A stretch of DNA of 64,000 bases from Euglena gracilis (GCA_039621445.1 CP154954.1:31396012-31460011), one strand, 5' to 3'; shown: positions 5,563 through 60,475, counted from the stretch's first letter. Notes: generated by a model from the letters alone, not told the origin. Numbers and translations: made by a program.

Positions 5563-5828
5563 CTACGCGTGGAGTGTGGCGCGATACGCGTAGGGTGTGT
5601 TGGCGCCAATGGCCGTAGTGGCCTGCTGGTTGTTGTCTCTGCCCCTTGCGGGGCCGTCTGACCACTGTCTGCCAGGGTCCGTGGCCATCACTTTGGGGGG
5701 TTTGGGCGCTGGAAATTTCTGTGGGGGATGTTTCTTTCGGGGAAGGGACAGCCACGGTTCGCCACAGCCGACCCGCGTCGTCAGGTTGTCCAGCTTCTGC
5801 TGCTGCTCCCTCTTGAAGTTCTCCAGCG
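5563..5828 (-). CDS. Probable terminal coding region [19 protein letters not shown]...ATLHA*; may contain one more short intron (about 5691-5770)
   Basis: CAG| acceptor, strong GC3 in 5773-5828; TAG at 5563. Confidence 0.5.
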
Positions 5829-59800: not shown

Positions 59801-60475
59801 AAATTATTTCCAAGAAAAAATCGGGGAACACACTGCCAAAAATTTACCAAAATTTGTCAAATTTTTTACCAAAATTTGTCAAATTTTGGCAAACTTGCAA
59901 CAAAATAGCAAAAATGCACCTGGATGCTCTTGTGAAACGATCGAAAAATGACAATTTTCCTGCAGTTTCTCTGCAATTTCTCCGCAATTTCCACAAGTTT
60001 TCTGCAATTTTTCCACAATTTCCCCCCTTTTCTTCAATTTTTTTCCCCATGAACCTGAAATACAGGGTAATCGAGTTCACAGCAATGGGGCTCCGTCCTG
60101 GGTAGCTGAAGGGGTGGCAGTTGGGGTCCCACTCGGCGTGGCGGACGGTGTCCCGGTGGGCGTCGCCGATGGGGTGCTGGTGGGGGTGCCAGACGGCGTT
60201 GCGGAGGGCGTGCCGGTTGGGGTAGCTGAGGGCGTCATTGTTGGTGTGCCAGAGGGCGTCGCGGACGGGGTGCCGGTGGGCGTGGCGGACGGTGTGGCGG
60301 AAGGCGTGCCGGTGGGCGTGGCTGATGGGGTGGCGGTGGGCGTGCCGGAAGGGGTGGCGGTTGGAGTGGCGGTTGGGGTGGCGGATGGGGTGGTGGTGGG
60401 GGTGCCGGACGGCGTGGCGGAGGGCGTGCCGGTCGGCGTCGCGGACGGTGTGGCGGAGGGCGTGCCAGTTGGGGT
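5563..60475 (-). CDS. Giant multi-exon gene (5'-partial): mucin-like Thr/Pro/Ser/Ala stalk plus non-repetitive C-terminal region; probable secreted or surface glycoprotein
   Basis: About 38 GC3-rich exons join in one continuous frame; exon lengths match intron phases at every junction. Mixed GT-AG and nonconventional (end-pairing) introns. No start codon in the window. Confidence 0.85.
6734..6758 (-). CDS. Probable 25-nt micro-exon AMLPFNRR
   Basis: AAG| and |GTACG; links the frames of both neighbours. Confidence 0.5.
6971..7026 (-). CDS. Probable exon [18 protein letters not shown]
   Basis: 8-bp end stem in the standard register; |GTGTG donor; frame-consistent. Confidence 0.55.
7730..7930. 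repeat. (CTATA)n microsatellite
   Basis: About 40 near-perfect pentamers. Confidence 0.97.
8081..8158 (-). CDS. Exon [26 protein letters not shown]
   Basis: CAG| acceptor; donor GGCCACGGC pairs with GCCGTGGC at about 7030. Confidence 0.7.
8543..8565 (-). CDS. 23-nt micro-exon (S)LCGCYAI(G)
   Basis: AAG| and |GTGTG; needed to restore frame into the next exon. Confidence 0.65.
8596..8721 (-). CDS. Exon [41 protein letters not shown]
   Basis: GC3-rich; nonconventional acceptor, |GTGCG donor. Confidence 0.75.
9078..9120 (-). CDS. Short exon [15 protein letters not shown]
   Basis: CAG| acceptor; donor GTCCAG pairing with GCAAATGTCTG; exact junction uncertain by 1-2 nt. Confidence 0.7.
9950..10056 (-). 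CDS. Exon [35 protein letters not shown]
   Basis: CAG| and |GTGTG boundaries. Confidence 0.85.
11363..11459 (-). CDS. Exon [33 protein letters not shown]
   Basis: CAG| and |GTGTG boundaries. Confidence 0.85.
11593..11763. repeat. (GT)n microsatellite
   Basis: Direct reading. Confidence 0.97.
12399..12457. repeat. (CGTG)n microsatellite
   Basis: Direct reading. Confidence 0.95.
12876..13014 (-). CDS. Exon [46 protein letters not shown]
   Basis: CAG| and |GTGTG boundaries. Confidence 0.85.
14065..14410. mobile_element. MITE, hAT-like
   Basis: 15-bp TIR CAGGCATTTGCTTAA; perfect 8-bp TSD CTCCCAAA. Confidence 0.9.
14652..14773 (-). CDS. Exon [40 protein letters not shown]
   Basis: CAG| and |GTACG boundaries. 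Confidence 0.85.
16188..16325 (-). CDS. Exon [45 protein letters not shown]
   Basis: CAG| and |GTATG boundaries. Confidence 0.85.
18162..18336 (-). CDS. Exon [37 protein letters not shown]...NYSS
   Basis: CAG| and |GTATG boundaries; frame fits neighbours. Confidence 0.85.
21943..22068 (-). CDS. Exon [42 protein letters not shown]
   Basis: CAG| and |GTGTG boundaries, 126 nt, phase 0/0. Confidence 0.85.
22791..23185. mobile_element. MITE, hAT-like, same TIR family as 14065-14410
   Basis: TIR CAGGCTTCTGCTT; TSD ATTGTGAT/ATTGTGAA. Confidence 0.85.
24015..24139 (-). CDS. Exon [42 protein letters not shown]
   Basis: Acceptor TGCCCTGCGACC|AG; GT donor CAG|GTGTG. Confidence 0.85.
24651..24758 (-). 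CDS. Exon [36 protein letters not shown]
   Basis: Acceptor CGCCTGCCGCC|AG; donor C|GGCCAGGGCA. Confidence 0.85.
25122..25294 (-). CDS. Exon [22 protein letters not shown]...SVSGR
   Basis: AG acceptor; donor A|GCCCAGGCG; strong GC3. Confidence 0.85.
26199..26273 (-). CDS. Exon [25 protein letters not shown] (end of stalk)
   Basis: Nonconventional acceptor CGGCGTGGCGGGC|G; GT donor GG|GTTTG. Confidence 0.75.
26520..26768 (-). CDS. Thr-rich exon (249 nt)
   Basis: Acceptor GCCTGCCCCC|G; donor GT|GACCACGCTG. Confidence 0.8.
28296..28473 (-). CDS. Thr/Ser/Arg-rich exon (178 nt)
   Basis: AG acceptor TTTCCAG|AC; donor AC|GTCCAGGC. Confidence 0.8.
29520..30172. repeat. Degenerate (TGGCCAAAAA)n minisatellite
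   Basis: Many imperfect copies of an approximately 10-bp unit. Confidence 0.85.
30788..31071. repeat. (CA)n microsatellite forming the 5' end of a GT-AG intron
   Basis: Direct reading; abuts the exon at 31072. Confidence 0.95.
31072..31544 (-). CDS. Thr-rich stalk exon (473 nt)
   Basis: Acceptor GCGCTCCCACT|G; GT donor A|GTGTGT. Confidence 0.8.
31636..31809 (-). CDS. Thr-rich stalk exon (174 nt)
   Basis: Acceptor CCCCTGCCTCC|A; donor CC|AAGGGGCGC. Confidence 0.8.
32584..33020 (-). CDS. Stalk exon (437 nt)
   Basis: Acceptor GCTCTGCCCCC|ACC; donor CC|ACACAGGGG. Confidence 0.85.
33173..33448 (-). CDS. Stalk exon (276 nt)
   Basis: Acceptor GCTCTCCCATGTCCCC|ACC; donor ACT|TTTCAGGGC. Confidence 0.8.
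34547..34702 (-). CDS. Stalk exon (156 nt)
   Basis: Acceptor CCCTGCAACC|ACC; donor GCC|ATCCAGGGCAGAGC. Confidence 0.85.
35729..36467. mobile_element. Non-autonomous TIR element with (GGGGGTAT)n tracts
   Basis: Inverted repeat ATGGCACAAAGTGGGGCCCCCATACC; 8-bp TSD AACTTTCC. Confidence 0.85.
36579..36950 (-). CDS. Stalk exon (372 nt)
   Basis: Acceptor GCTCTGCCTCTGCCCCC|ACC; donor GCC|ATCCAGGACGGAGCC. Confidence 0.85.
37822..38092 (-). CDS. Stalk exon (271 nt)
   Basis: Acceptor TGGGTACCTAGCCCC|A; donor GCC|GTCCAGGACGGAGCC. Confidence 0.8.
38176..39687. mobile_element. Second copy of the CACATATG...CATGACTC element family
   Basis: Same termini as 35729-36467; 8-bp TSD GAAATTTG. Confidence 0.8.
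40521..42369. mobile_element. 1.85-kb non-autonomous DNA transposon
   Basis: 24-bp [27 protein letters not shown]; subterminal (TTATTCCGG)n; TSD CTCTAAG; internal (CCTACTCAA)n at 42020-42141. Confidence 0.88.
42814..43070 (-). CDS. Stalk exon (257 nt)
   Basis: Acceptor CCACGTCTGTCTCC|ACC; donor CC|AATAAGGTACCCA. Confidence 0.8.
44451..44882 (-). CDS. Stalk exon (432 nt)
   Basis: Acceptor CTCTGTCCCC|ACC; donor GCC|GTGCAGGGGTGG. Confidence 0.85.
45847..46218 (-). CDS. Stalk exon (372 nt), paralog of 48494-48865 and 36579-36950
   Basis: Acceptor GCTCTGCCTCTGCCCCC|ACC; donor GCC|ATCCAGGACGGAG. Confidence 0.85.
47802..48017 (-). CDS. Stalk exon (216 nt), paralog of 51140-51355
   Basis: Acceptor CTCTGCCCCC|ACA; donor GCC|GCCCAGAACAGA. 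Confidence 0.85.
48494..48865 (-). CDS. Stalk exon (372 nt)
   Basis: Acceptor GCTCTGCCTCTGCCCCC|ACC; donor GCC|GTCCAGGACGGAGCC. Confidence 0.85.
51140..51355 (-). CDS. Stalk exon (216 nt)
   Basis: Acceptor CTCTGCCCCC|ACA; donor GCC|ATCCAGAACAGA. Confidence 0.85.
51642..52013 (-). CDS. Stalk exon (372 nt)
   Basis: Acceptor CTCTGCCCCC|ACA; donor GCC|GTCCAGGACGGAGCC. Confidence 0.85.
52239..52394 (-). CDS. Stalk exon (156 nt)
   Basis: Acceptor TTCTGCATCC|ACC; donor GCC|GTCCAGGACGGAGCC. Confidence 0.85.
52700..54318 (-). mobile_element. Internally deleted hAT-type transposon with a TTF-type zinc-finger remnant
   Basis: 25-bp TIR CAGACC(G/T)CCATTTAGTG(C/T)GTATCAC; TSD GTTGGGAT/GTGGGGAT; subterminal GTGATACA repeats; ORF 53631-53966 has F..W.....WL......WC..C...H....H. 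Confidence 0.85.
54587..54815. mobile_element. Small MITE-like element
   Basis: Inverted ends CnGGGAAACTGTCA / TGACAATTTCCCGn; internal CTGACAG repeats. Confidence 0.55.
54948..55166 (-). CDS. Stalk exon (219 nt)
   Basis: Acceptor AAGTCT|GCC; donor GCC|AGCCAGGATGAG. Confidence 0.8.
56186..56554 (-). CDS. Stalk exon (369 nt), near-identical to 60104-60475
   Basis: Acceptor TTCTGCCCCC|ACC; donor TCT|GTTTCGGGCG pairs with CGCCCAAG of the next acceptor. Confidence 0.85.

Follow-up and report, generated by a model that had tools for sequence, protein, structure and literature searches.

A stretch of 64,000 nucleotides (nt) from Euglena gracilis (GCA_039621445.1 CP154954.1:31396012-31460011, one strand; hereafter the window) carries on its minus strand what we consider, with a probability of roughly 0.8, to be a real and very long euglenid nuclear gene for a mucin-like protein, in which conventional GT-AG introns and nonconventional introns are mixed. 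From 60475 down to approximately 6970, 34 exons and 33 introns were placed: 17 exons code for a repeat rich in Thr, Pro, Ser and Ala (TPSA; exons X1-X17), 3 are T-rich (Y1-Y3) and 14 correspond to a conserved domain (E0-E13). The 33 introns comprise 16 nonconventional ones that fit the published euglenid code, 3 others that are not GT-AG, 9 of the GT-AG type and 5 with many equally good candidate junctions (X17-Y1, Y1-Y2, Y3-E0, E11-E12 and E12-E13). A first-pass annotation made from the sequence alone had proposed a gene of more than 55 kb at 5563-60475, with about 38 exons, about 23 nonconventional and about 14 GT-AG introns. A minus-strand gene spanning at least 53.5 kb, with at least 34 exons, is compatible with this proposal, but the exact counts were not reproduced and 60475 is not the gene start: it is the base that follows a 3' intron end, i.e. 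an acceptor. Therefore, the gene extends further upstream, its 5' part being lost at the window end. Downstream of E13 (6970), no further exon was placed by tblastn or local alignment against the homologues, whose C-terminal ~100 amino acids (aa) were only partly matched. Exon E0 and the architecture of a Eutreptiella homologue, both described below, suggest that a single transcript would run across all exons.

The coding nature of the repeat part was established from the divergence between its copies. Self-comparison of the window revealed numerous blocks, 250-580 nt long and alike in sequence, from 32.6 to 60.5 kb, and 17 TPSA-repeat blocks were recognized in the minus-strand translation between 60502 and 31635. 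All three frames are open across these blocks and therefore the keeping of one frame proves little by itself. Five exon copies of 372 nt (X1, X5, X7, X9 and X13) were compared in a gap-free alignment. In the TPSA frame, 8, 13 and 78 of the 124 columns are variable at codon positions 1, 2 and 3, respectively, and 81% of the differing codon pairs are synonymous, the corresponding figures for the two remaining frames being 6% and 5%. Since divergence is biased towards third positions, the TPSA blocks are protein-coding sequences under purifying selection and their frame is thereby fixed. Ranking of whole open reading frames (ORFs) by GC content at third codon positions (GC3) was discarded, as it chose a wrong, His-rich frame whose GC3 reflects the C-rich second position of TPSA codons; a sliding GC3 scan and codon-position divergence were used in its place. 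When joined, the 5,033 nt of X1-X17 encode 1,677 aa (35% T, 25% P, 18% A, 17% S) and E0-E11 encode 508 aa, neither product being interrupted by a stop. The earlier statement that these junctions preserve one frame thus holds for these exons, weak as the frame argument is on its own. Among the repeat exons delimited by intron motifs, the length is divisible by 3 in 9 out of 10 checked, and the tenth (X16) is in frame with X17.

The exons of the repeat part are separated by 16 introns of 152 to 4,718 nt. An acceptor signal CTG-N5^A (^ marks the exon border) is present at 14 out of 17 TPSA blocks and a donor signal ^N3-CAG at 13 out of 17; most blocks have ..CTCTGCCTCTGCCCCC^ACCCC as upstream flank and ..CCCTTCAGCC^[A/G]TCCAGGACGGAGCC as downstream flank. 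Over the whole gene, 16 of the 19 introns classed as non-GT-AG fit the code N3-CAG/CTG-N5^R, all of them in the form CAG/CTG with N5: in these 16, CAG lies at +4..+6 and CTG at -8..-6, and the exon that follows begins with a purine (A or G), in agreement with the constant register of paired ends described in the first-pass annotation. None of them ends in AG, and 6 out of 16 begin with GT but end with CC. The example put forward in that annotation is the nonconventional intron between X1 and X2 (56555..60103, minus strand; 3,549 nt, ACCCAGG...CTGCCCCC). Both of its strings are present on the minus strand, ACCCAGGACGGAGC at 60103..60090 and GCTCTGCTTCTGCCCCC at 56571..56555, the second one also at 60492..60476.

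The intron ends are under constraint. In the five 372-nt copies, intron positions +3..+13 are invariant at 11 out of 11 sites and positions -16..-1 at 15 out of 16, and similarity stops a few bases beyond, whereas third codon positions are variable at 63% of the columns of the same alignment. With a free-site invariance of 0.37, we calculate probabilities of ~2e-5 (11 sites) and ~3e-7 (15 sites) for such invariance to arise by chance. This test uses the divergence between copies and therefore is not weakened by their paralogy. More generally, copies that are 90-98.6% identical remain similar over only the first ~13-16 nt of the downstream intron and the last ~24-31 nt of the upstream one.

The first-pass annotation had also suggested co-folding of the intron ends as a check. 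With RNAfold, the 16-nt ends of the code-fitting introns gave a mean of -9.7 kcal/mol, as compared with -5.3 kcal/mol for the nine GT-AG introns and -4.6 kcal/mol (standard deviation 3.6) for displaced controls, and the end pairing is often extended beyond CAG/CTG by a second helix, GGAGC/GCTCT. The minus strand contains 2,598 candidate CAG/CTG pairs with a run of at least 7 and the plus strand 3,061; since such pairs are equally frequent on both strands, pairing alone proves little, and enumeration of motif plus pairing was rejected as a gene-finding criterion because it does not separate the strands. By our arithmetic, about one frame-keeping, code-fitting junction is expected by chance per pair of search windows. 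A decoy-spacer control of the nonconventional code, confounded by sliding, is only weakly informative.

Two introns of the repeat part, X2-X3 and X11-X12, cannot be GT-AG at any slide. The second one is the longest placed in the repeat (38094..42811, 4,718 nt); it has neither GT-AG nor CAG/CTG, and its ends form an 8-bp Watson-Crick helix, GGTACCCA/TGGGTACC, in an N3/N6 register. We estimate the chance expectation for a helix of this type at ~0.09 among 6,128 candidates. It corresponds to the end pairing across up to 4.7 kb mentioned in the first-pass annotation. Intron X2-X3 has a 12-bp helix that includes G-U pairs, in an N3/N5 register. A third intron, X14-X15, was placed by analogy only and shows ATG in place of CTG.

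Tentatively, an exon together with its two flanking intron ends may be viewed as a cassette, for which the splicing signal would exceed the minimal code, introns would multiply through exon duplication or gene conversion, and helix length would replace the motif, as in X11-X12 and X2-X3; we regard this as possible but rather doubtful. Three exon copies are of interest here: 36563-36981, 45834-46249 and 48478-48896 are 97.6-98.6% identical, and the introns surrounding them are unrelated beyond ~13-31 nt. Near-identical exons in unrelated introns suggest, on sequence grounds, gene conversion or cassette duplication confined to the exon and its splice signals.

The exons of the repeat part, all on the minus strand, are as follows. 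X1 (60104..60475, 372 nt, phase 0-0) is preceded by the acceptor ..CTGCCCCC^ACC. X2 occupies 56178..56554, its 3' border being tentative, either 56178 (from the 12-bp helix) or 56185-56189 (from a contig joint), and X3 occupies 54948..55173, with a tentative 5' border at 55165-55173. They are followed by X4 (52239..52394, 156 nt), X5 (51642..52013, 372 nt), X6 (51140..51355, 216 nt), X7 (48494..48865, 372 nt), X8 (47802..48017, 216 nt), X9 (45847..46218, 372 nt), X10 (44451..44882, 432 nt), X11 (42812..43070, 259 nt), X12 (37822..38093, 272 nt), X13 (36579..36950, 372 nt) and X14 (34547..34702, 156 nt). X15 (33173..33448, 276 nt) has an acceptor placed only by analogy, ATG standing there in place of the expected CTG. 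The last two are the TP-rich X16 (32584..33020, 437 nt) and the T/S/P-rich X17 (31636..31809), in which the acceptor at 31809 is defined and the 3' border is tentative. A tandem duplication of ~3.8 kb (56187-59954 versus 60108-63852, 98.2% identical) was observed at the upstream end of the placed exons, each unit consisting of ~3.4 kb of intron and one TPSA exon; this array may run past the window end.

The gap from 31.8 to 26.5 kb is filled by T-rich open frames. Exon Y1, a T-rich ORF (31072..31540, minus strand), has tentative borders and runs into a (GT)n microsatellite. On the plus strand this is (CA)146 at 30780-31071, hence (TG)n on the gene strand directly after Y1, and the microsatellite (~290 nt) may constitute the start of a GT-AG intron. 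Y2 (28296..28473, minus strand) has a defined donor, ^gtccaggctgg, and a tentative acceptor, while in Y3 (26522..26768, minus strand) the acceptor, cgcctgccccc^GAC, is defined and the donor is tentative. The ends of intron Y2-Y3 (28295..26769), gtccagg../..cgcctgccccc, are like those of the other nonconventional introns of the gene.

From 25.3 to 6.9 kb, the sliding GC3 scan detected protein-like segments every 1-3 kb. Thirteen segments of a homologous protein, P0010, are collinear with the minus strand in this region: 11 were placed by tblastn (with P0010 and a second homologue, P0006) and 2 more by local alignment. All frame-keeping donor/acceptor pairs were enumerated for each junction and ranked by alignment to P0010. 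The resulting minus-strand exons begin with E0 (26199..26290; acceptor tentative), which holds T/S-rich sequence and the domain start (..TSISPG) and matches ..LWTSPGFGSVIPLAGQ of the homologue P0013. Homology then placed E1 of the conserved domain (25122..25294), E3 (24015..24139), E5 (21370..21483), E8 (14652..14773), E9 (12876..13014) and E10 (11363..11459). Between these lie E2 (24651..24758; nonconventional introns on both sides), E4 (21943..22068; GT-AG introns on both sides), E6 (18162..18336; the query of the protein search) and E7 (16188..16325; local alignment). At the 3' side are E11 (9912..10056; 3' border tentative), E12 (8550..8678; borders tentative) and E13 (6970..7037), which matches both homologues and has tentative borders.

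GT-AG was the top solution at E3-E4, E5-E6 and E7-E8 and near the top at E4-E5, E9-E10 and E10-E11; E6-E7 is GT-AG as well. For E8-E9, a C-rich tract led us to choose the GT-AG solution, which ranked only 87 out of 7,287. The nine GT-AG introns start with gtgtg, gtatg, gtacg or gtttg, and in most of them the cag^ end is preceded by runs of C. Two junctions have no GT-AG solution. In intron E1-E2 (25121..24759), the code-fitting solution was ranked 3 and the ends form a 6-bp helix (CAGGCG/CGCCTG), and in E2-E3 (24650..24140) the corresponding rank was 14 and the helix is of 7 bp (CAGGGCA/TGCCCTG). Within 4 score units of the best solution, GT-AG fits 5 out of 12 junctions, as compared with an average of 0.45 for the 256 possible dinucleotide pairs, and the next-best dinucleotide pairs are one-base slides of GT-AG. 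Shifting a single junction by 1 nt introduced 3 stops and lowered the alignment score from 1170 to 359.

The homologues were found by phmmer with the region of exon E6 (18372-18148) against 1.84 billion representative proteins. Ten matches were obtained, of which three are relevant (P0001, P0010 of 600 aa and P0006 of 672 aa) and two, P0010 and P0006, are true homologues. The others of P0002-P0009 besides P0006 are bacterial-type repeat adhesins or unrelated proteins with weak partial matches, and were set aside as not homologous. P0001, a protein of 146 aa derived from a contig of 1,243 nt, is 93% identical to the 18372-18148 region, with intron-like flanks read through, which points to a second genomic copy or to a transcript with retained introns. 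P0006 clusters with P0013 (UniRef100_A0A6U8DZW8), an uncharacterized protein of 901 aa from Eutreptiella gymnastica. The product of E0-E11 shares 50.0% identity with residues 3-504 of P0012 (616 aa; 486 columns) and 42.9% with residues 206-701 of P0013. The same conserved domain is thus found, collinear, in P0013, P0010 and P0012, the last two being derived from contigs. Directly before the domain, P0013 has a T/S/P-rich N-terminus of ~225 aa, whereas the repeat of the present locus comprises 1,677 aa or more with a regular TPSA period; when the N-terminus of P0013 was compared with the window by tblastn, the TPSA blocks were matched by composition only. Searches for homologues by length class returned only P0001 among longer proteins and none of near length, and a profile search returned only P0010, low-complexity words having filled the 8,000 candidates. 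No Pfam family was found on P0010, P0006 or P0001. Structure prediction with AlphaFold2 from a four-sequence alignment was poor (mean predicted local distance difference test score 38.4, predicted template modelling score 0.28), and the best score in the ESM Atlas, 0.75, was below lead level.

From sequence, the product would be at least ~2,500 aa long and consist of a long N-terminal Thr/Pro/Ser/Ala repeat of mucin type followed by a Cys-containing domain of ~600 aa. This domain is predicted to be strand-rich and its relatives come so far only from euglenids. Mucin-type glycoproteins have Pro/Thr/Ser tandem repeats that are densely O-glycosylated, and are secreted or located at the cell surface. 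The locus is like them in composition and in having long tandem repeats, here from duplicated phase-symmetric exons; the likeness is one of composition only. Judging by composition and architecture, the repeat is presumably O-glycosylated and the protein a surface or secreted one. The locus thus adds a very large mucin-like member to an uncharacterized, so far euglenid-only protein family.

Transcript data were mapped on 40501-60500. They consisted of two raw RNA-seq runs (X21 and X24, sampled at 5-6%) and of the contig sets of two other runs, labelled X1 and X2 (not to be confused with the exons), which are probably RNA; this is a guess, in line with their near-zero depth in unique intron bins (0.24/0, 0.22/0 and 0.66/0). 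In both contig sets the exons are covered at a depth of 30-160; for instance, the 60104-60303 piece of exon X1 is matched with 0 mismatches at depths of 31 and 110, and a piece of X10 (44628-44819) is also matched with 0 mismatches. RNA mapping was another check suggested in the first-pass annotation, and the contigs, unlike the raw reads, which were too sparse to decide either way, contain its example junction: a joint 56550->60100 (run X1, 1 contig, shorter side 26 nt) corresponds, with a slide of 4, to the junction of 56554 with 60104. Together with 44882->51642 (acceptor of X10, donor of X5) and 48864->54947 (slide 3; acceptor of X7), it falls on sites that had been predicted beforehand. 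A fourth joint that fits predicted sites, going back 372 nt from donor 60104 to acceptor 60475, is expected if a further tandem copy is present upstream; it fits an extra copy of the 3.8-kb array or a paralogue. At X2-X3 the joint 55165->56185 defines a form 15 nt shorter than that predicted from the best helix. The joints given here are those among the matches listed, to which 65 more joints are to be added.

From the raw runs, 214 and 223 reads mapped to this interval; 197 and 204, respectively, matched it only in part, and nearly all fell on dispersed repeats. Several intronic segments (40501-42501, 46504-47170, 49172-51172, 54508-55174 and 57843-59176) have contig depths of hundreds to thousands and receive nearly all of the raw reads; they seem to be dispersed repeats with a high abundance in RNA. 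Inside one such intronic repeat, at 50454-50557, a joint going back 104 nt was seen in 19 raw reads (1 from X21 and 18 from X24).

Several observations weigh against a single gene of this structure. Direct transcript evidence comes from 40501-60500 only, the part covered by the mapping and not 5.5-40.5 kb, and the raw-read depth on TPSA exons is ~0, which is uninformative at 5-6% sampling; given a contig exon-to-repeat depth ratio of 1-3%, no raw reads are expected on exons at this depth. Each contig joint is seen in one or two runs, in a single contig of each, and its shorter side measures 21-34 nt; since exon ends are common to several copies, the partner exon is ambiguous. Two joints, when read literally, skip 3-4 blocks, and three others lie inside blocks (46216->51796, 44648->51889 and 44745->51873). 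Most contigs are 95-99% identical to the locus, not 99% or more (2300 versus 1134 in run X1), and therefore paralogues contribute to them. No spliced product of the locus was found in the protein collections searched. As regards the introns, X2-X3, X11-X12 and X14-X15 fall outside the published code, the joint and the best helix of X2-X3 differ by 15 nt (the joint form being the shorter one), and the 16 code-fitting introns are mostly paralogous copies rather than independent cases.

One alternative is that two genes are involved, a TPSA/T-rich one from 60.5 to ~26.5 kb and a conserved-domain one from 26.3 to ~7 kb, matured separately, for example by addition of a spliced leader. This agrees with the absence of any transcript or contig joining the two halves, with the many equally good candidate junctions at X17-Y1, Y1-Y2 and Y3-E0, and with the starts of P0010 and P0012, which lie shortly upstream of the domain. 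However, P0010 and P0006 are contig-derived and possibly partial, E0 carries T/S-rich sequence and the first domain residues in one open frame, in P0013 the domain is fused to a mucin-like N-terminus, and strand and orientation are the same throughout; we hold two genes to be improbable. It could also be that the locus is a silent or decaying paralogue with a real intron structure, the copy itself being unused and the RNA contigs coming from near-identical relatives. The absence of raw RNA reads on exons, the 95-99% identity of most contigs, the 93%-identical unspliced copy from elsewhere represented by P0001, and the failure to find C-terminal exons beyond E13 are in line with this. Several contig pieces without mismatches, the lack of stops in 1,677 + 508 aa of joined exons and divergence confined to third positions, a mark of long-term constraint, nevertheless make an unused copy quite improbable.

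Finally, the TPSA blocks might be a non-coding, GC-rich minisatellite, in which case the CAG/CTG ends would be due to chance or be part of the satellite unit. Tandem Repeats Finder does detect a periodicity of 12/24/60 nt in these blocks, their three frames are all open, and CAG/CTG pairs (run of at least 7) are no rarer on the plus strand (3,061) than on the minus strand (2,598). This explanation is extremely improbable in view of the distribution of variable columns over codon positions (8, 13 and 78 of 124), of the 81% synonymous differences in one frame only, of the sharp stop of between-copy similarity just outside the proposed splice signals, of contig joints at predicted sites and of a homologue with the same kind of N-terminus.

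Under the preferred reading, that of one long gene with mixed introns, the pre-mRNA would be processed by two routes side by side, one for at least 9 GT-AG introns and the other for at least 16 nonconventional introns. The former would be recognizable by gtgtg or gtatg starts and C-rich tracts before the cag end. In the latter, pairing of the ends (CAG with CTG, often with GGAGC/GCTCT in addition) would bring the exon ends together, and the intron would then be removed by the euglenid excision machinery. The TPSA exons would represent phase 0-0 cassettes multiplied by duplication, each copy having retained, besides the exon, the first ~13 nt of the downstream intron and the last 16-24 nt of the upstream one.

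Earlier work on the nonconventional introns of Euglena was reportedly carried out by Milanowski et al. and Guminska et al. According to Nomura et al. 2025, the code 5'-N3CDG-/-CH'GN5-6^R is found in 61.2% of nonconventional introns, these make up 71.8% of the 649,158 introns of E. agilis, and their presence together with GT-AG introns within one gene has already been described (PMC12501133). For E. gracilis, Gao et al. 2024 gave CCAGG at +3..+7 and CCTG at -9..-6, a mean intron length of ~520 nt with maxima of 4.7-8.2 kb, and a C-rich polypyrimidine tract in conventional euglenid GT-AG introns (PMC11170887). The intron ends described here match N3CDG/CH'GN5-6^R and CCAGG/CCTG, as the first-pass annotation had supposed when it recognized a euglenid nonconventional signature. 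Sixteen introns share with the published ones N3-CAG, CTG-N5 and a following exon that begins with a purine; further points of likeness are terminal pairing, CCAGG at +3..+7 (with CCTG at -9..-6 outside the repeat part), borders that can slide by 2-4 nt, coexistence with GT-AG introns and the occurrence of some introns that start with GT without ending in AG. The nine GT-AG introns, with C-rich sequence before cag, resemble conventional euglenid ones and no difference was seen. The differences, none of them categorical, are that introns of the repeat part are longer (152 to 4,718 nt) than the published mean, that the copies are conserved to +13 and -16 (-24 in some), past the minimal code, and that in two introns long helices occur without CAG/CTG and the next exon starts with a pyrimidine.

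The intron phenomenon, the motif, the pairing and the coexistence with GT-AG introns have all been published genome-wide and are known biology. An annotated E. gracilis genome has a mean of 8 exons per gene (PMC11252322); the present locus is a size outlier among E. gracilis genes and is not new in kind. What stands out is that, in the duplicated cassettes, conservation of the intron ends goes further than the minimal code, and that two introns have long helices but lack CAG/CTG. The bearing of the locus on the excision machinery is no more direct than that of thousands of catalogued introns. It provides a worked example of how euglenid genes can be read, homology and codon-position divergence giving the exons, and the nonconventional code and GT-AG most of the borders. 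In addition, its five to ten paralogous exon copies constitute a natural series of intron ends with graded divergence, code-breaking variants included.

A search of the window with Rfam at gathering thresholds gave no match. Long simple repeats occur inside the introns of the gene, namely (CTATA)42 at 7731-7940 and (GT)87 at 11594-11767.

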